This document shows, in pieces, positions 32,302 to 63,867 of a stretch of DNA of 64,000 nucleotides. The translations under genes were made by a program, and so were the position numbers. The stretch's first letter is position 1. Each line of letters opens with the position of its first letter. The notes beneath the pieces were generated by a model. The model saw only the letters and a program-made list of their open reading frames with translations, did no database searches and was not told where the DNA came from. This DNA is from Actinomycetota bacterium. GTDB lineage: Bacteria > Actinomycetota > Thermoleophilia > Solirubrobacterales > Thermoleophilaceae. The DNA lies in NCBI GenBank assembly GCA_046726915.1, contig JBKPBS010000008.1, forward strand, positions 10 to 64,009. Reading direction: 5' to 3'.

Positions 32302-34290
32302 GTGACACCTGGCTTCACCCGAACCGCCTTCTGTGCAGTGACAGTCGTGCTGGCCCTGGCCCTTGCTCCGGGAGCGTTCGCCGCGCCCGAGGTCGGGGAC
32401 GCCGGCGATCTGCGCGCGACGGCGAACGACATGGGCGCCGGCGCGGTGACGACGATTTCGGGCAGCTTCACGGACGCCTCCGACGCCGACCTCTACCGCA
32501 TCTGCCTCTCGGACGGCGCCTCCTTCTCCGCGAGCACCGTCGGCGCGACCACGCTCGACACGCAGATGTTCCTCTTCGACTCGCAGGGGTACGGGGTCTA
32601 CGCGAACGACGACTGGAACGGTTCGCGCGGATCCATGCTGCCGGCGCAGCACCGATTCTCGCCCCGCGCCGGCGGCGAATACTTCCTCGCCATCAGCTCG
32701 TTCAACCGCGACCCCCAGAGCGTGCAGGGCGAGATCTTCCAGGACAACTTCAGCCGCCCCCTGTACCCGGACAGCATCGTCGACGCCAACGGGTTCGGCG
32801 CCGCCGAGACGCTCATCGGCTGGGCCGGACGGGCGTCAGGGCCCCCAGGGCTCTACGAGATAACGCTGACCGGGACGGCTCCATGCGACACGACGCCTCC
32901 CACCGTCGACCTGCGCAGCCCGGTCGACGGCGCCCACGTGAAGCAGGGGGCCGAGGTGGTCGTCGACTTCTCGTGCGCCGACGAGGAGGGCGGCTCCGGC
33001 CTCGCCTCGTGCGTGGGCACGACGGCCGACGACGCGCTGCTTGACACGAGCGAGCTCGGCGCGGTGCCGGTGACGGTCACGGCGCGCGACCACGCAGGGA
33101 ATCGGACCGTGGTCACCCACACGGTCACCGTCATCGACGAGACGAAGCCGGAGGTCACGCTGGCCACCCCGCCGAATGGGGCGGTCTACGACCGCGGCGA
33201 GCACGTCGCCGCCGACTATTCATGCGCGGACGAGCCGAACGGCTCGGGTATCGAGTCCTGCGTCGGCGACGTGGCGGACGGCGCCGACATCGACACGAGC
33301 ACGCTCGGCGAGCACACCTTCAAGGTTGAGGCCACGGACCGGGCCGGGAACACCGGTTCGAAGTCGGCGACCTACACGGTCGTTGACGCGACCGCGCCGG
33401 ACATCGCGGTTACCACCCCTGCATCCGGCGCGGTCTATGGCCTCGGCGACCACGTGACAGCGGACTACGCGTGCGCTGACGAGCCGGGCGGCTCGGGCCT
33501 CGCGACCTGCACAGGCAGCGCCGCTAACGGCGGCGCGGTCGACACCTCGAGCGTCGGCGAGAAGACGTTCACGGTCGAGGCCATGGACAACGCCGGGAAC
33601 GCGGCCTCGAAGAGCGTCACCTACACGGTGGTCGACCAGGCGCCGCCGGTGATCAGCCTCACCGCGCCGGCCGACGGGGCGGTGTACGAGCTCGGCGAGC
33701 ACGTGGTTGCTGCCTACTCGTGCGAAGACCAGCCGGGCGGCTCGGGCGTGGCCGGCTGCGACGGAACGGTGGCGAACGGCGCGGCGATCGACACGTCGAG
33801 CCTCGGGGAGCACAGCTTCGAGGTGACCACCTCGGACCGGGCCGGGAACACCGCGTCCAGGGTGGTCACCTACCGCGTGGGCTACGACTTCGACGGCTTC
33901 ATGTTGCCGGTCAAGAACCTGCCGAGCATGAACAGGTGGAAGGCCGGCCTGCCGGTGCCGATTCGCTTCTCGCTGAACGGCTTCCGGGGCGCGCGCCCCG
34001 AGGCGGACGGCTACCCGCGCTCCATACGCTGCGGTGGCGGGGACGCGGAGCAGATCACGCGCGCCCGCGCCGCGCAGAAGGCGCCCGTCTTCAGGTACGA
34101 GCGCCGCTCGGACGAGTACGTGATGCTCTGGAAGACCGCGCACAGGTGGATGGGAACCTGCCGCGAGTTCGTGCTGCGGCTGGAAGACGGCAGCGTCCAC
34201 AGCGCGCGGTTCCAGTTCATGAAGAAGCGCCCGGACAGCGGCCGCGATCGCGGCGACGACAGCGACGACAGCGGAGACGGCGGCGACTGA
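32302..34290 (+). CDS. Secreted multi-domain surface protein (N-terminal PPC-like domain, four Ig-like repeats, C-terminal GFxxPV domain, acidic tail)
   Basis: Signal peptide ...ALALAPGAFAAPE. The N-domain has DADLYRICL...MFLFDSQG...YFLAISSF, followed by four ~82-aa repeats, then GFMLPVKNLPSMNRWKAGLPVPIRFSL, and it ends in DDSDDSGDGGD. Confidence 0.85.
   Translation: MTPGFTRTAFCAVTVVLALALAPGAFAAPEVGDAGDLRATANDMGAGAVTTISGSFTDASDADLYRICLSDGASFSASTVGATTLDTQMFLFDSQGYGVYANDDWNGSRGSMLPAQHRFSPRAGGEYFLAISSFNRDPQSVQGEIFQDNFSRPLYPDSIVDANGFGAAETLIGWAGRASGPPGLYEITLTGTAPCDTTPPTVDLRSPVDGAHVKQGAEVVVDFSCADEEGGSGLASCVGTTADDALLDTSELGAVPVTVTARDHAGNRTVVTHTVTVIDETKPEVTLATPPNGAVYDRGEHVAADYSCADEPNGSGIESCVGDVADGADIDTSTLGEHTFKVEATDRAGNTGSKSATYTVVDATAPDIAVTTPASGAVYGLGDHVTADYACADEPGGSGLATCTGSAANGGAVDTSSVGEKTFTVEAMDNAGNAASKSVTYTVVDQAPPVISLTAPADGAVYELGEHVVAAYSCEDQPGGSGVAGCDGTVANGAAIDTSSLGEHSFEVTTSDRAGNTASRVVTYRVGYDFDGFMLPVKNLPSMNRWKAGLPVPIRFSLNGFRGARPEADGYPRSIRCGGGDAEQITRARAAQKAPVFRYERRSDEYVMLWKTAHRWMGTCREFVLRLEDGSVHSARFQFMKKRPDSGRDRGDDSDDSGDGGD
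32890..33882 (+). repeat. Four tandem ~246-nt (82-aa) coding repeats
   Basis: Repeat consensus: P.V.L..P..GAVY.LG.HV.ADY.CADEPGGSGL..C.G....G..IDTSS.GE.TF.VEA.D.AGN...KS.TYTVVD. Repeat boundaries fall at about aa 197, 281, 363 and 446. Confidence 0.8.
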
Positions 34291-57895: not shown

Positions 57896-58330
57896 ATGGC
57901 CGAACCAACCGAGGAGATCCAAGAGGTTCTGAACTTCCTGCTCCCCCGCGCGGAGCGCATGCTCAACGAGGACGGCGAGTTCTACCCCTACGCCGTGGCG
58001 CTCGACCGTGCGGGCACGATCGAGGCCGTGGCGCCCGCGGTCGAGACCGACGACCTCGACGTCGGCGACCTCCTTGTCGCGCTCCACAAGGATCTGCGCG
58101 AGCAGGCGGCCGAGGGCTCGATCCGCGCATCGGGAATCGCGGCCGATGTGATGTTGACCGATCCCGACAGCGGCGAGACGACCGACGCGGTCCAGCTCGA
58201 GCTCGACCACGCTGACGGCGACGCCGTGGACATCTACGTGCCCTACGAGAGCGCCGACGACGGCGTGAAGTTCGGCGAGCTGGTGTCGGCGGTGGGACGC
58301 GAGCCGGTGTTCGACTCCTCGCCGGCCTAG
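57896..58330 (+). CDS. Acidic hypothetical protein (144 aa)
   Basis: ATG 57896 (MAEPTEEIQEVLNFLLPRAERMLNEDGEFYPYAVALD...). Balanced composition. Family not recognised. Confidence 0.55.
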   Translation: MAEPTEEIQEVLNFLLPRAERMLNEDGEFYPYAVALDRAGTIEAVAPAVETDDLDVGDLLVALHKDLREQAAEGSIRASGIAADVMLTDPDSGETTDAVQLELDHADGDAVDIYVPYESADDGVKFGELVSAVGREPVFDSSPA

Positions 58331-60393
58331 AAGAGCTTGGTCTGAGCGGGCTCGCGCGGGGGCCGGGGCAAGGGGAGGGTGACCGGGTCCTGCTCCGGAG
58401 CCGACATTCGCATCGACCGAGTCCCGGAGCCCGGCCGCAGCAGCGCCTGGATACGCTCGCGCTCCGCCTTGCCGACGTACGCGCCGCGCGCATAGAGCTG
58501 CTCGTACCGAGGCACCAGATCCGGCCGGTATGAGCGAAGCCACTCGAAGAAGATGTCGCGCACCTCACCGCGCAGGTGGAGCGGAATGCCGCCGATGTTC
58601 ACGGCGCCCGCCTCCCCGCAGAGCTCGAGGATCTCCTCGACCTGCTTCGGTGAGTCGTTGATGCCGGGCATCAGCGGCGCGATCAGCACGCCGGTCGGAA
58701 TCCCGGCCCGGTTCAGCTCGGCCACCGCCTCGATGCGCTTGCGCGGATGCGGCGTGTGCGGCTCGCTGGCGCGCCAGGCCTTCTCCTCGAGCGTCGGGAT
58801 CGAGAGGTTGGCCGCGAAGCCGGCCACCTCGTGAATCTGCTTGAACAGCTCGATGTCGCGAAGTAGCAGCGGCGACTTGGTGAGCACGGACGAGGGCGTG
58901 CCCGAATCCCGCATGGCCTCCCAGATCCCCGGCATCAGCCGGTAGCGCCCCTCGACCCACTGATACGGATCCGTATTGGTCCCAAGAGCAACGTGCTCCC
59001 GCTTCCACGACGGCCGCATCAACTCCGCCCGGGCAACCTCCGGAACGTTGACCTTGACGACGATCTCCTTCTCGAAGTCACGGCCGGCGTTGAAGTCGAG
59101 ATAGGTGTGGGTGGGCCGGGCGAAGCAGTTGTGACTCACGACGCCGTTCGCGATGAAGTCACCCGTACCGGTTGTGATGTCGTAGAGGCGATAGCCGCGT
59201 CCGAGAGGCTCGATCTCAGCAACCCTGAGCTTCGCCGGGTTCTTAAGCGCGACGGTCTCTATGTCGCGCTTGCGTGTGATCGCGGGGTCGACCGTGTGGA
59301 AAAAGCGCAGCTTCTCGCCCAGGCCTCCGAGCAACCGAACCACGCGCAAACCGTTCGTCCGCCCGTAATCCTCGACCACGTGGCGAAAGCCAAGTGCACG
59401 CAGCGACCAGCACGTCCAATCGATGATCTGAGGATCGGTGTTCGAGATCCGGATCGCGCCGCCGTGGTGCCCCTCCGCATCGTAAATGCCAGCGAGGAAG
59501 CCTTTGCACCACTCGGGCCGCACCCCGCGGGGCCATTCGATCATCTCTGTAATCGCCGCGATGTCCTGCTGTCCGCCGGCGACGAGAGCGCGCATTGAGC
59601 GTCGCCCGGCCGAGGCAAAAGCGGACTCCCGCGCGCGTACCCCCAGTGCTTCGTCGAGGTATTGCTTCGTCCGGTCAAGCGCCTCGTAATCCGTCAGAGC
59701 GAGCCGGAATCGGTTGAATCGGTGTCGCCGACCATCCGATCCTTCGCGGATCCCTGATGCGAGGTGCGCGTCGCCGCGGATAATTCCGCAGAGGTAGCCC
59801 CGGCGGTAGTCCAGCCAGTGCTCCGGTTGCTCCGCGAACGCCCCGGTCCCGATGAGCTTGTCGTTCAAGGTCAGGTGGGCCCGATCAGGACCGCGGGCAT
59901 TGTTCAGTACGTGCTTCCAGCCGCGCTGGGTCAGGAAACGGTGGTCGCCGCTCGCGATCAGTTCCGTCCCGTCTTCGAGCGTGACCCGGTACGCGGGCTT
60001 GATCGTGGACCAGTGATCGAGGACCTCGGTCACCCAGTAGCGCCTGTATCGCCCTCGCCGAACCGTCCCGTAGACGAAGTCGCCAGGTCGAACCTCGGCG
60101 ATCGGCTTCGTCCTGCCATCACCCATAAGGATTGGGGTTATACCCCATACGCAGTACAGGCAGGAATGGGTGCATCCTCTGTACGGGTTGATCGTCCAGC
60201 GGAAGGGCATCCGGGATGCGTTCGGAACCCTGTTCAGTGCTGACTTCGCCCTGACTTCGTAGAAGCGGGTGTCGAGGGCCTCGGGTGCGTCGAAGGTGCG
60301 CACGGTCGCGGGCTCGCGGTAGCCCGGAAGGGTGCGGGCGTCGTCGGCGTCGACCTTCAGGTTGTCCCAGCGCACGAACACATGTTCGCACAT
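58327..60393 (-). CDS. Radical SAM protein (Rv2578c-like family) interrupted by an in-frame intein
   Basis: Exteins: ...FRWTINPYRGCTHSCLY / CFARPTHTYLDFNAGRDFEKEIVVKVN...LGTNTDPYQ...IAPLMPGINDS.... Joining them restores CTHSCLYC (CX3CX2C). Confidence 0.9.
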   Translation of the reverse strand: MCEHVFVRWDNLKVDADDARTLPGYREPATVRTFDAPEALDTRFYEVRAKSALNRVPNASRMPFRWTINPYRGCTHSCLYCVWGITPILMGDGRTKPIAEVRPGDFVYGTVRRGRYRRYWVTEVLDHWSTIKPAYRVTLEDGTELIASGDHRFLTQRGWKHVLNNARGPDRAHLTLNDKLIGTGAFAEQPEHWLDYRRGYLCGIIRGDAHLASGIREGSDGRRHRFNRFRLALTDYEALDRTKQYLDEALGVRARESAFASAGRRSMRALVAGGQQDIAAITEMIEWPRGVRPEWCKGFLAGIYDAEGHHGGAIRISNTDPQIIDWTCWSLRALGFRHVVEDYGRTNGLRVVRLLGGLGEKLRFFHTVDPAITRKRDIETVALKNPAKLRVAEIEPLGRGYRLYDITTGTGDFIANGVVSHNCFARPTHTYLDFNAGRDFEKEIVVKVNVPEVARAELMRPSWKREHVALGTNTDPYQWVEGRYRLMPGIWEAMRDSGTPSSVLTKSPLLLRDIELFKQIHEVAGFAANLSIPTLEEKAWRASEPHTPHPRKRIEAVAELNRAGIPTGVLIAPLMPGINDSPKQVEEILELCGEAGAVNIGGIPLHLRGEVRDIFFEWLRSYRPDLVPRYEQLYARGAYVGKAERERIQALLRPGSGTRSMRMSAPEQDPVTLPLPRPPREPAQTKLF
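59128..60153 (-). mobile_element. Class-1 intein with LAGLIDADG homing-endonuclease domain (342 aa)
   Basis: Starts CVWGITPILMGDG (block A). It carries SGDHRFLT (block B), two LAGLIDADG motifs (YLCGIIRGDAHL, FLAGIYDAEGH), and ends YDITTGTGDFIANGVVSHN followed by the +1 Cys. Codon positions were checked against the sequence (gca at 60151-60153 and at 59125-59127). The region looks less GC-rich than its flanks. Confidence 0.85.
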
Positions 60394-60418: not shown

Positions 60419-60844
60419 TCAGCGCTCTTCGCCGAAGGCCGTGAAGACGACCCGGCGCGGGCCGCCGTGATTCCGGTGCTCAGCCAGGTAGATGCCCTGC
60501 CAGGTGCCGAGTGCCAGCGCCCCGCGGGACACCGGGATCGTCAGTGAGGAGCCGGTCAGCGAGGCCTTGAGGTGGGCCGGCATGTCGTCGGGTCCTTCGA
60601 GGGTGTGGGCGAAGTAGTCGGCGCCGTCGGGGACGGCTCTGTCGAACCAGGTGGCGAAGTCCCGGCGCACGTCGGGTGAGGCGTTTTCGTTGATCGTCAG
60701 CGACGCGGACGTGTGCTGCATGAAGAGGGTCGCGATTCCCACCTCGAGACGGCCGAGATCGGGCACCGCGTCAACGATTTCGGAGGTTACGAGGTGGAAC
60801 CCGCGCGGTCGTGCACGGAGCTCGATCTGCTGCTGGATCCACAT
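60419..60844 (-). CDS. YjbQ/UPF0047-family protein (secondary thiamine-phosphate synthase-like)
   Basis: ATG 60844. FHLVTSEI...LFMQHTSASLTINENASPDVRRD...HLKASLTGSSLTIPV..G.LALGTWQGIYLAEHR. Confidence 0.9.
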   Translation of the reverse strand: MWIQQQIELRARPRGFHLVTSEIVDAVPDLGRLEVGIATLFMQHTSASLTINENASPDVRRDFATWFDRAVPDGADYFAHTLEGPDDMPAHLKASLTGSSLTIPVSRGALALGTWQGIYLAEHRNHGGPRRVVFTAFGEER

Positions 60845-60926
60845 CGCGCGCATTCTGGCGGTAACGGCAAAGCGCACATATTGTGACGCCAGGCCCGAAG
60901 GCTCGTAGACAGGCCAGAGGAGGAGC

Positions 60927-62582
60927 ATGGATCCGCCCCTCCGCGAGCGGTTGCGCTGGCGGAATGCGACAGGATACGGTGTCGGGCCGGCCGTCAGGCG
61001 GGCGCCGCTGGCTCCTACCGCCGCCCTCCTGTTCGGGGCCGCCGCACTGATCTGCCTGACGGGCCTGCTGGTGCCCGGCGACGCGCAGCTCGACGACGAC
61101 GTTCTGCTCGCCACGGCCGCCGCAGCGGCGCTCGGCTCCGCCTTCCTGCTCGTCGTCAACGAACGCGTGCCCGAGTGGACCTACCACCCCATCGGCGTGT
61201 TCGGCACCGCGGTGTCGACGGCCGCCGCGTACGGATGGGGCTCCGGAACCGCCTACGGACCGCTGCTCTACGTGTGGGTCACGATGTTCGCGTTCTACGT
61301 CTTCACCCGCGGCGCCGCCCTCGTGCATCTGGCGCTGATGGGCGTCGCCTACGCGTTCGCGCTCGTCCTCGAAGACCCGGCCGAGAACCCGCTCGACGGC
61401 TGGATCGCCACGGTGGGAACGCTGCTCGGCACCGGGCTCTTCGTCGCGTTCGTGCGCGACCGCCTCAGCAACATGTTCCACCGCCTCCGTGAAGCGGCCC
61501 ACCGGGACGCGCTCACCGACCTCCTCAACCGGCGCGGCTTCCAGGGCGTCTTCGACACGGAGCTCGAGCGCGCCCGGCGAGCCGACCAGCCGCTCAGCCT
61601 GATCGTCGGCGACATCGACCGTTTCAAGCGCGTGAACGACGCCCACGGCCACGCCGCCGGCGACGCCGTGCTCACGCGCGTGGCCGACGCCATCCGCGGC
61701 GCCAAGCGCGGCTTCGACAGCGCAGCCCGGGTCGGCGGAGAGGAGTTCGCGGTGCTCGCGCCGGACTGCGACGCGCATGGCGCCTACATGCTCGCGGAGC
61801 GCATCCGCGCCGCGGTGCACGAGGCGCTCTCCGCGAACGTCGAGGGCGGGCCGCTCACGATCAGCTTCGGCATCTCGACCTTTCCGCTGCACGGCCAGTC
61901 GGCGGACGGCCTCCTGAGCACAGCCGATCAGGCGCTCTACGCCGCCAAGCGCCTCGGCCGCAACCGTTCGGTCATCTCGAGCGCCGAGGTGCCGGGCATT
62001 CTCGCGCGCGCGTCGCGTTCCCGCGACGGCGACGCGCACGTCGAGCTCGCCGCGCTCCTGAACCTCGCCGAGGCGCTCGACGTGCGCGACACGGGGAGCG
62101 CGTCACACTGCCATCGCGTCGGGCGCTTCGCGGAGCTCGCCGCCCGCGAGCTCGGCCTGCCCCCGGAGATCGTGGAGCGCGTTCGGCTTGCGGGCATCCT
62201 CCACGACGTGGGCCGGGTGGCGCTGCCCGATCACGTCCTCGCAAAGCAGGGGCCGCTGACCGACGACGAGTGGGCCTGGATCCGAGCCCACCCGGCGGTC
62301 GGCGCGCGGATGATCGAGACGACCGAGTACGAGGACATCCGCTCATGGATCCTGTTCCACCACGAGCGCCCCGACGGCCGCGGTTACCCCGAGGGCCGCG
62401 GCGAGGACGACGTGCCGCTCGAGTCCGCGATCATCGGCGTGGCGGACGCTTACGAGGCCATGACGAGCGAGCGCCCGTACCGCTCCGCCCTCCCCGCCGA
62501 GGACGCTGCCGACGAGCTCCGCCGCGAGGCCGGGCGGCAGTTCCGTTCGGACGTGGTCGAAGCGCTGCTCCGGGGCGTGTGA
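60927..62582 (+). CDS. Membrane sensor with GGDEF (diguanylate cyclase) and HD-GYP (c-di-GMP phosphodiesterase) domains
   Basis: About 5 N-terminal TM helices. RDALTDLLNRRGF...VGDIDRFKRVNDAHGHAAGD...RVGGEEFAV, then HCHRVG...ILHDVGRV...HHERPDGRGYP. Confidence 0.9.
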   Translation: MDPPLRERLRWRNATGYGVGPAVRRAPLAPTAALLFGAAALICLTGLLVPGDAQLDDDVLLATAAAAALGSAFLLVVNERVPEWTYHPIGVFGTAVSTAAAYGWGSGTAYGPLLYVWVTMFAFYVFTRGAALVHLALMGVAYAFALVLEDPAENPLDGWIATVGTLLGTGLFVAFVRDRLSNMFHRLREAAHRDALTDLLNRRGFQGVFDTELERARRADQPLSLIVGDIDRFKRVNDAHGHAAGDAVLTRVADAIRGAKRGFDSAARVGGEEFAVLAPDCDAHGAYMLAERIRAAVHEALSANVEGGPLTISFGISTFPLHGQSADGLLSTADQALYAAKRLGRNRSVISSAEVPGILARASRSRDGDAHVELAALLNLAEALDVRDTGSASHCHRVGRFAELAARELGLPPEIVERVRLAGILHDVGRVALPDHVLAKQGPLTDDEWAWIRAHPAVGARMIETTEYEDIRSWILFHHERPDGRGYPEGRGEDDVPLESAIIGVADAYEAMTSERPYRSALPAEDAADELRREAGRQFRSDVVEALLRGV

Positions 62583-62637: not shown

Positions 62638-63867
62638 ATGGAGCCGGCAGGCACCCTCGCTCCGCTTCTGCCCTCCGTCTGCGCGATCGTGCTGGCGGGA
62701 TTCGTGCTGCACCAACGCAAGCGCATCGCGGGCCTGCGCGCCCGCATCGCCGGCTCGAACCGCACCGACCCGCTCACCGGGCTCTTCAACCGTCGCGCCT
62801 TCGAGGAGCTGCTCGAGCTCGAGCTCGAGCGCGCCACGCGTGCCGGCCGCCCGATGTCCGTGATCGTCGGCGACATCGACGGCTTCCGCGCGGTCAACGA
62901 GCGGCACGGCCACGCGGCCGGCGACACGGCGCTTCAGGCCGTGGCCCAGAACGCGCTCAAGTGGAAGCGCCGCATCGACGTCGCGGCGCGGATCGGCGGC
63001 GAGGAGTTCGCGCTGCTGCTTCCGGAGACGGACGAGCGCGGCGCCTTCATCGTGGCCGAGCGACTGCGCCGAGCCACCCACCGCAGCTTCAACGAGGCGG
63101 CCCCCGGCGTCACGTTCAGCTTCGGGGTCGCGACCGCACCGGCTCACGCCACAGACGGAGTCGGCCTGCTGAGAGCGGCCGACAGCGCCACCGCCGCCGC
63201 CAAGGACCTGGGCGGCGACCGCACGGTCATCTACAGCGACGAGATTGCGCGCATGCTCGCCGAGGCGGGTGCGGCCGCCGGCGGCGAGCTCCAGCTGGCG
63301 ACGGTGATAGCGCTCGCCGAGGCACTCGACATCCGCGACACCGGCACGGGCCAGCACTCGCACACGGTCGGCCGCTACGCGGAGCTGATGGCGCGCGAGC
63401 TCGGGTTCGAGGAGGACCGCGTCGAGCGCATCCGCCTCGCCGGCGTGCTTCACGACATCGGCAAGATCGGCATCTCGGATCGCCTGCTCTCGAAGCCCGG
63501 CCCGCTCGACGCGGACGAGTGGCAGGAGATGTTCACGCATCCGGAGATCGGGGCGCGCCTCCTGTCGCGGCCCGAGTTCGACGACCTGCGCGCCTGGATC
63601 CTCGCCCACCATGAGCGCCCCGACGGGCTCGGCTACCCCCACGCCCTCAGGGCGGGCGAGATCCCCCTGGAGTCGCGCATCCTCGCGGTCGCGGACGCCT
63701 ACGAGGCCATGACCGCGGACCGCGTCTACCGCCCAGCCCTAGGCGAGGATGCCGCGCGCGCCGAGCTCGAGGCCGGCGCGGGCACACAGTTCGACGCGCG
63801 GGTCGTCGAAGCACTGCTGCGGGTACTCGACGCGAGCCGCGCCCGCCGCCTGCGCCGCGTGGCCTAG
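62638..63867 (+). CDS. GGDEF plus HD-GYP domain protein (shorter paralogue, one TM)
   Basis: TDPLTGLFNRRAF...VGDIDGFRAVNERHGHAAGD...RIGGEEFAL, then HSHTVG...VLHDIGKI...HHERPDGLGYP. Confidence 0.9.
   Translation: MEPAGTLAPLLPSVCAIVLAGFVLHQRKRIAGLRARIAGSNRTDPLTGLFNRRAFEELLELELERATRAGRPMSVIVGDIDGFRAVNERHGHAAGDTALQAVAQNALKWKRRIDVAARIGGEEFALLLPETDERGAFIVAERLRRATHRSFNEAAPGVTFSFGVATAPAHATDGVGLLRAADSATAAAKDLGGDRTVIYSDEIARMLAEAGAAAGGELQLATVIALAEALDIRDTGTGQHSHTVGRYAELMARELGFEEDRVERIRLAGVLHDIGKIGISDRLLSKPGPLDADEWQEMFTHPEIGARLLSRPEFDDLRAWILAHHERPDGLGYPHALRAGEIPLESRILAVADAYEAMTADRVYRPALGEDAARAELEAGAGTQFDARVVEALLRVLDASRARRLRRVA

Follow-up and report, generated by a model that had tools for sequence, protein, structure and literature searches.

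A full-size LAGLIDADG intein in the iron-sulfur cluster loop of an Rv2578c-family radical SAM protein from Thermoleophilaceae

A radical S-adenosylmethionine (SAM) gene of the Rv2578c family is interrupted by an intein in a 64,000-nucleotide stretch of a Thermoleophilaceae genome (Actinomycetota; GenBank assembly GCA_046726915.1, contig JBKPBS010000008.1, positions 10 to 64,009; hereafter, the window). With high confidence, we regard the element as a full-size class-1 intein that carries a two-motif LAGLIDADG homing endonuclease, is selfish and mobile, and resides in the iron-sulfur (Fe-S) loop of an SOS-regulated radical SAM enzyme. The intein class is already known, and the locus is a well-formed, ordinary member of it, from Thermoleophilaceae, that remains below threshold on curated hidden Markov models (HMMs).

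Translation places the insert at precursor residues 81-422, between an upstream flank ending in ...NPYRGCTHSCLY and a downstream flank beginning with CFARPTHTYL.... Excision of the insert in silico leaves a 346-aa protein featuring the sequence C74-T-H-S-C78-L-Y-C, the CX3CX2C triad of radical SAM enzymes. The third cysteine of this triad is the residue that follows the intein (Cys+1), as can be read from the translation, and the intein boundaries proposed in the initial annotation of the locus turned out to be exact (Table 1). The intein has a GC content of 0.637 (N-extein, 0.642; C-extein, 0.678); at third codon positions (GC3), the intein has a value of 0.77 vs 0.85 and 0.89 in the N- and C-exteins, respectively.

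The same junctions were found with the NCBIfam model NF038136, which aligns with the whole precursor over positions 1-566 of 574 (673.4 bits, E 3e-202). Model junctions 75^76 and 334^335 (a caret marks a splice junction throughout) coincide with Y80^C81 and N422^C423; the intein alone accounts for positions 76-334 of the model, and positions 335-566 are matched by the C-extein in the spliced product. The spliced product is best assigned, by far, to the Rv2578c family (NF038135; 394.5 bits, positions 1-308 of 317), the runner-up in NCBIfam being the PA0069 family (249 bits). The Pfam Radical_SAM model (PF04055) matches the unspliced 688-aa precursor with 37.1 bits (cutoff 29.5).

The residues of class-1 splicing are all present, namely Cys81 (Cys1 of the intein), S68-G-D-H71 in block B, Asp325 in block F, the terminal H341-N342 and Cys423 (Cys+1). 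Blocks A and B, the two LAGLIDADG motifs and blocks F/G ending in HN, listed in the initial annotation, were all recognized and are conserved in close and distant homologues. Catalytic positions are at least 90-98% conserved among 119 close homologues, in which the conservation of Ser68 and His71 is at least 98%, and all of the 118 close inteins listed start with Cys and end with SHN, followed by Cys+1. In 20 distant relatives (32-59% identity; alignment A3), C1, H71, D128, E227, D325, H341 and N342 are invariant, and Ser68 is at least 90% conserved. Foldseek searches with the whole intein matched PI-PfuI, Tli VMA and PI-SceI; a profile built from the intein clan described below matched the gp41-1, DnaB and DnaE mini-inteins in the PDB, and sequence and fold searches of the PDB together retrieved PI-PfuI, gp41-1, DnaB inteins and PI-SceI. 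These matches are compatible with a HINT fold of the splicing domain. A second copy of the intein clan was searched for in the window, and none was found.

Homologues lacking the intein are common. A search with the spliced sequence retrieved many intein-less proteins of 340-355 aa, such as P0121 and P0122. In alignment A1, intein-less homologues, the identity of which reaches about 90-91%, are separated from the precursor by one gap corresponding exactly to the 342 residues, and read RGC.H.C.(Y/F)^CFARPTH across the insertion point. A scan of species-representative genomes yielded 575 relatives, and loci were counted in the best 80, almost all of which bear the labels Thermoleophilaceae, Solirubrobacterales or unclassified Actinomycetota metagenome-assembled genomes (MAGs). 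Of the 79 scorable loci in this set, 78 have an empty site, reading G-C-x-H-x-C-x-x^C-F-A-R-P, and a single one (L028) is occupied, by a 347-aa intein inserted at the same position. Related Thermoleophilaceae genomes carry a syntenic, intein-less copy of the gene that is 90-92% identical. In the empty loci L001-L003, the DNA is collinear with the window on both sides, including the upstream UPF0047/YjbQ gene and the downstream genes, and the alignments end no more than about 20 nt from both intein ends; around the insertion point, the empty allele of L001 and L002 reads TGC...TAC^TGCTTCGCC. The ratio of empty to occupied loci and the collinearity of L001-L003 therefore show that close relatives differ in the occupancy of this site and that the window locus represents an occupied allele. 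Alleles with and without the intein are interleaved at 93-97% extein identity. Both the gap in alignment A1 and the syntenic empty loci bear out the clean insertion that had been claimed for this gene.

The endonuclease had been described as apparently intact, a description supported by its fold and by the selection acting on it. In the AlphaFold2 (AF2) model, almost the entire stretch of precursor residues 190-370 has a predicted local distance difference test (pLDDT) score of 81-95, the lowest values lying toward the C-terminal end, and the modelled topology is twice alpha-beta-beta-alpha-beta-beta-alpha. This domain is the usable part of the whole-precursor model, which is poor overall (pLDDT 61.5) and does not extend to the geometry of the four cysteines. 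Foldseek aligned the domain with I-DmoI over ~182 columns (template modelling (TM) score 0.72-0.79, root mean square deviation ~3.2 A, E 4e-11) and the whole intein with PI-PfuI (1dq3; E 4e-11), and the clan profile matched I-DmoI with an E value of 3e-11. The catalytic Glu227 of the second motif is at least 90% conserved in close homologues.

Codon alignments of eight intein-bearing genes gave rough ratios of nonsynonymous to synonymous substitution rates (dN/dS) of 0.17-0.21 for the endonuclease domain (dS about 1.7), 0.13-0.20 for the splicing domain (dS 1.0-1.5) and 0.16-0.18 for the exteins (dS 0.5-0.6), values which, though rough, place the endonuclease under purifying selection. The dS of the intein (1.0-1.7) exceeds that of the exteins two- to threefold, and the intein lineages thus predate the split of the hosts in which they now reside. 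The identity of the inteins is poorly correlated with that of their exteins (r = 0.13 in comparisons with the window protein; Mantel r = 0.24, 6555 pairs), and in 97 pairs the exteins are at least 94% identical while the inteins are at most 60% identical. Two intein subtypes, one of ~342 aa ending in ANGVVSHN and the other of ~347 aa ending in SNGVISHN, occur in almost identical hosts; the two are ~57% identical in exteins that are ~95% identical, and 51-60% identical in other pairs. A single soil sample (European Nucleotide Archive ERZ25039586) yielded two Thermoleophilia contigs, L121 and L123, which carry the 341-aa and the 347-aa subtypes within near-identical exteins and next to the same YjbQ neighbour. 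The inteins of P0029 and P0114 are 58-77% identical to the window intein.

Decayed variants are present at the same site in close relatives, and include a 154-aa mini-intein (P0207) and inteins of 277 (P0037), 321 (P0038) and 322 aa (P0044). Such mini and partly deleted variants are predicted by the decay phase of the homing cycle. Further mini-inteins or partial endonuclease deletions were observed in P0334, P0335, P0360 and P0390.

These features are consistent with a conventional splicing and homing cycle. The 688-aa precursor would be translated, and Cys1, aided by Ser68 and His71 of block B and by Asp325 of block F, would undergo an N-S acyl shift. Attack of the thioester by Cys+1 would be followed by cyclisation of Asn342, aided by His341, and by an S-N shift, releasing the free intein and a 346-aa enzyme with an intact C74-X3-C78-X2-C motif. 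The mature cluster site is expected only after splicing, because in the precursor the third ligand is 342 residues away from the first two and is also the splicing nucleophile. Once freed, the endonuclease would cleave empty alleles where they encode GC.H.C.Y^CFARP, and the intein would be copied into the cut allele by recombinational repair. The choice of site may reflect the invariance of the cluster position, which contains an obligatory cysteine; at such a position, imprecise loss of the intein would be lethal to the enzyme. The anatomy of the element, its clean insertion, its conservation, the fold of the endonuclease, the purifying selection, the polymorphism of the site and the SOS box were observed directly, whereas we infer splicing itself, the activity of the endonuclease and the order in which the cluster is loaded.

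The element is a textbook homing intein, probably active and mobile to judge from these comparisons. It might instead be a vertically inherited relic that splices without homing and whose endonuclease is inactive. The endonuclease-deleted variants P0207 (154 aa) and P0037 (277 aa) show that decay has been reached in some lineages at this very site, and the Pfam LAGLIDADG_3 match of the window intein is only sub-threshold. However, both catalytic acidic residues are conserved, the fold is confidently that of LAGLIDADG enzymes and the endonuclease-domain dN/dS is ~0.2; the divergence of the two subtypes inside much more similar exteins and the excess of intein over extein dS also argue against a relic, which we consider improbable. 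A non-splicing insertion that has turned the host gene into a pseudogene is very unlikely, to the point of being negligible: the frame is open through 688 codons, all splicing residues are conserved, and the exteins of intein-bearing alleles are as constrained as others (dN/dS 0.16-0.18) and 93-97% identical to those of intein-less alleles.

Several observations weigh against the interpretation of the element as an active homing intein in an Rv2578c-family host. The NF038136 score (673 bits) is below the curated cutoff of 700, which is narrowly missed because the intein is longer and divergent, and the score of the spliced product on NF038135 is below the equivalog cutoff of 430. Pfam Intein_splicing and LAGLIDADG_3 matches fall below gathering thresholds. 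The splicing (HINT) domain is modelled with a pLDDT of 45-70 only. The intein dS is near saturation, which makes the dN/dS ratios rough, and the sequences are mostly from MAGs and metagenomes, and therefore the evidence of mobility is comparative only.

The intein may alternatively be viewed as a post-translational switch, the initial annotation having contemplated that cluster, redox or metal state gates splicing. Gating by redox state would act via a Cys78(-3)-Cys1 disulfide, and gating by metal or Fe-S via binding to C74, C78, Cys1 and Cys+1. An oxygen-labile, SOS-induced enzyme would then mature only in permissive conditions. The cysteine at position -3 could pair with Cys1 (C78-L-Y^C81), and the Cys(-3)-X-X-Cys1 geometry found here is shared by 74/87 clan N-junctions. 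In the Pyrococcus abyssi (Pab) MoaA intein, a Cys-3/Cys1 disulfide blocks splicing until it is reduced (PMC10663303, PMC3922620). Moreover, the host is a member of a DNA-damage regulon, so that the timing of its activity could matter. In contrast, Cys-3 and Cys+1 are required by the host motif and say nothing on selection for regulation, and the Pab MoaA junction is only presumably at the same site. With 78/79 scorable species-representative loci intein-less, intein-free alleles are common in the closest relatives, and the host therefore does not need the intein. Since the host motif itself imposes these cysteines, and since the majority of close relatives are intein-free, finding them here does not speak for adaptive gating. 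We find it unlikely both that the intein acts as such a switch and that the coupling of splicing to redox or Fe-S status provides a checkpoint on an SOS-induced, oxygen-sensitive repair enzyme.

A PDB sequence search with the spliced extein gave no match at E<=1. The model of the intein-less orthologue P0121 (pLDDT 84.3) has its best fold match in the spore photoproduct lyase (SPL) structures 4fhc/4fhf (E 2e-9, TM 0.55, 288 columns), other radical SAM enzymes coming next, and the insertion point maps to the loop after strand beta-1 that bears the cluster ligands. At the start of the gene, the sequence CGAACATGTGTTCG fits the CGAAC-N4-GTTCG operator and is a putative LexA (SOS) box. The box recurs at the same offset in 77/78 homologous Thermoleophilia loci (L001-L080 set). 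In Mycobacterium tuberculosis, Rv2578c is a RecA-dependent LexA target according to chromatin immunoprecipitation sequencing (PMC3381160). The conserved box, the LexA-bound Rv2578c and the SPL fold together make the host most likely a DNA-damage-induced radical SAM repair enzyme. The conserved 'CEHVF' N-terminus probably is the operator read as protein, which would make the annotated ATG (60393) wrong; the true start probably is a downstream GTG, at codon 5 or 7, because homologues start with MFVRW or MRW. Matches to GAAC-N4-GTTC at 33348 and 49200 in the window were set aside, as they do not have the full CGAAC/GTTCG arms.

Relatives of the intein extend well beyond the Rv2578c family. A phmmer search with the intein alone retrieved 1782 proteins at E <= 1e-3, 265 of them at E <= 1e-30. 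Most hosts in this clan are COG1533-type proteins, and full-length relatives (35-48% identity) are inserted at the same spot in DUF5131 (PF07505) proteins, B12-binding proteins and several plain Radical_SAM families. At least one of the DUF5131 hosts (P0272) has a ParB N-terminal domain. The clan proteins originate from Actinomycetota, Acidobacteriota, Pseudomonadota, Armatimonadota and Planctomycetota MAGs, and their NCBI names include 'intein-containing Rv2578c family radical SAM protein [Micromonospora]' and 'PA0069 family radical SAM protein [Rubrobacter xylanophilus]'. N-junctions follow C-X3-C-X2^ in 74/87 representatives and feature Cys1 in 81/87; at C-junctions, Cys+1 is found in 73/75 and the HN end in 75/75. 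The 20 inteins of alignment A3 come from at least five host families and are collinear over the splicing and endonuclease domains. In a rough neighbour-joining tree, which carries no support values, COG1533 inteins form one clade and those of other hosts a second clade in which families are interspersed, a pattern that suggests extein switching.

The clan is also represented in IMG/VR viral contigs, which contain 34 relatives with junctions at the same cysteine. According to NCBIfam, the viral-contig hosts are QueE, with GCNLRCEW^C...HN^CDT, SPASM peptide maturases, MoaA/viperin/W-cofactor-maturase-like proteins, an anaerobic-sulfatase-maturase/SPASM-like protein, radical SAM mobile pair protein A and COG1533-like proteins. 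On the intein part of these proteins, NF038136 is far ahead of any other intein-bearing model. The relatives outside COG1533, among them P0272, P0291, P0316, P0318, P0348, P0377 and P0283 and the viral loci L087-L115, are 28-48% identical, and both domains are collinear.

A few clan members depart from the common arrangement. In P0329 (821 aa), the intein is inserted one cysteine earlier (GCPYR^C...SHN^CNFC), and Cys+1 is the second cluster ligand; P0293 (761 aa) has Ser1 instead of Cys1. P0265 and P0267 are clan intein-like open reading frames with neither a CX3CX2 N-flank nor Cys+1 (...SHN^WDPRN or RDAGR), and may be free-standing, decayed or frameshifted copies.

Clan hosts other than DUF5131 and SPL proteins presumably fall into different megaclusters of the superfamily. 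In RadicalSAM.org, DUF5131 and SPL are neighbouring sub-clusters of Megacluster-5 (PMC9477430). We consider it likely, with good confidence, that one ancient clan of LAGLIDADG inteins, which targets specifically the third cysteine of CX3CX2C, has moved among at least six radical SAM families (COG1533/Rv2578c-PA0069, DUF5131/mobile pair A, B12-binding, SPASM peptide maturases, QueE and MoaA/viperin-like) in bacteria and phages. Whether this clan-level occupation of CX3CX2^C has gone undescribed is, in our estimate, an even matter. The searchable open-access literature yielded no paper linking inteins to the CX3CX2C cluster motif, and a Campylobacter phage paper mentions inteins and radical SAM only separately.

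The initial annotation was right that this class had been catalogued, as NF038136 is part of NCBIfam and Novikova et al. (2015; PMC4760082) list 48 inteins in SplB (COG1533) proteins of Actinobacteria, a host that ranks with the most frequent ones in bacteria. The window intein shares with NF038136 and the 'SplB' inteins the host family and the insertion point, and aligns with the model at full length; it differs in the number of intein residues (~259 match positions in NF038136 vs 342 aa here) and in having a Thermoleophilaceae MAG as host. In its searchable part, the 2015 survey makes no reference to the Fe-S motif. The Pab MoaA intein resembles the window intein in its radical SAM host and in its C-X-X^C arrangement, and the disulfide described above blocks step 1 of its splicing; however, it is archaeal and belongs to another host family, and the redox data come from Pab MoaA only. 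PI-PfuI, PI-SceI and the Tli VMA intein combine a HINT splicing domain with a monomeric two-motif LAGLIDADG endonuclease, the bipartite architecture predicted for the window intein, and I-DmoI is a free-standing LAGLIDADG endonuclease with a matching fold. In contrast, the identity of these four proteins to the window intein is 13-20%, their hosts and target sites are different, and none of the solved structures comes from this clan.

A parallel is provided by phage inteins that target nucleotide-binding (P-loop) motifs and switch exteins (Kelley 2016, PMC5050341; bioRxiv 10.1101/2025.01.02.630785), in which one lineage occupies an equivalent catalytic motif in different host families, phages being involved. 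The motif differs, being a nucleotide-binding motif rather than CX3CX2C, as does the superfamily, and the main text of both reports makes no mention of radical SAM hosts. With regard to the host enzyme, the best structural match, spore photoproduct lyase (SplB; Geobacillus SPL 4fhc-4fhg), is likewise a radical SAM enzyme and acts in DNA repair, but the identity is about 16% and the match to NCBIfam TIGR04070 is marginal only.

Table 1. Coordinates of the intein, its host gene and neighbouring features in the window.
Feature	Position	Strand	Remarks
Precursor gene, Rv2578c-family (COG1533, 'SplB'/DNA repair photolyase-like) radical SAM protein plus intein	58327..60393	-	688 aa as annotated
N-extein, 80 aa, ending in ...NPYRGC74THSC78LY	60154..60393	-	First two cluster cysteines; Cys78 is position -3
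Codons of C-T-H-S-C-L-Y, first seven residues of CX3CX2C	60154..60174	-	N-side half of the homing site; in local GC3 trough
Full-size class-1 intein, 342 aa (CVWGITP...GVVSHN), 1026 nt	59128..60153	-	Precursor residues 81-422
Block B, S68-G-D-H71 (TxxH with Ser for Thr)	59941..59952	-	
LAGLIDADG homing endonuclease domain	59284..59826	-	Intein residues ~110-290
LAGLIDADG motif 1, GYLCGIIRGDA, catalytic Asp128	59767..59799	-	Asp128 invariant in close and distant sets
LAGLIDADG motif 2, GFLAGIYDAEG, catalytic Glu227	59470..59502	-	Invariant in 20 distant relatives
C-terminal splicing region, blocks F and G (...LYDITTGTGDFIANGVVSHN)	59128..59241	-	Ends in His341-Asn342
Cys+1 codon (TGC), Cys423	59125..59127	-	Splicing nucleophile and, after splicing, third [4Fe-4S] ligand (predicted)
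C-extein, 266 aa plus stop	58327..59127	-	Rest of the radical SAM barrel
Putative LexA (SOS) box, CGAACATGTGTTCG (gene strand)	60375..60388	.	Overlaps codons 2-7 of the annotated ORF (open reading frame)
GC3 trough	60124-60183 and 59116-59127		
UPF0047/YjbQ gene	60422-60850	-	
GGDEF + HD-GYP (HD_5) gene	60927-62579	+	
GGDEF + HD-GYP (HD_5) gene	62638-63864	+	

Codon usage is anomalous around the insertion point. Codons -10..+3 have a GC3 of 0.68 across the 78 empty alleles, compared with 0.895 expected from the usage of each amino acid elsewhere in the same genes. No other 14-codon window of the gene is as extreme as this trough, which consistently features GGA at Gly-8 and CAT at His-5. Eight intein-bearing alleles have the same trough (0.43-0.79 vs 0.89-0.97) and the same GGA and CAT codons; in six high-GC homologues from outside Thermoleophilia, the trough is smaller (mean deficit about 0.08, n=6). 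The trough was followed over codons -12..+3 in loci L001-L080 and L121-L126. Synonymous changes by which empty alleles escape the endonuclease were rejected as its sole cause, since intein-bearing alleles share it. Candidate explanations are co-conversion tracts or scars of past occupancy, recognition at the nucleotide level, and a host constraint on translation of the cluster loop.

The UPF0047/YjbQ gene lies upstream on the same strand, with about 25 nt between its end and the radical SAM ORF, and therefore any SOS promoter would be located inside or at the end of the YjbQ gene. A scan for sigma-70 promoters upstream of the radical SAM gene gave no match. The pairing of the YjbQ and radical SAM genes is kept in most of the related loci examined (L121, L123, L124 and L125). 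Two adjacent paralogous genes encoding GGDEF and HD-GYP (HD_5) domains are located upstream of this pair, in divergent orientation.

What the locus adds to the known class is the view of one clan occupying the radical SAM cluster loop across families and phages, an SOS context, and a gating hypothesis that can be tested. The recurrence of the same CX3CX2^C position across families and in phage QueE and SPASM genes points to the cluster loop as a homing site throughout the superfamily, comparable to the P-loop for other inteins. This is of value for annotation, as it bears on radical SAM genes that appear split or 'too long' and on 'partial' LAGLIDADG calls, and also on extein switching. A role of Rv2578c-family enzymes in the DNA-damage response gains support from the conserved LexA box. 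Finally, because the splicing nucleophile is itself an Fe-S ligand, the locus is a clean natural setting for a direct test of whether inteins sense redox state or metals.

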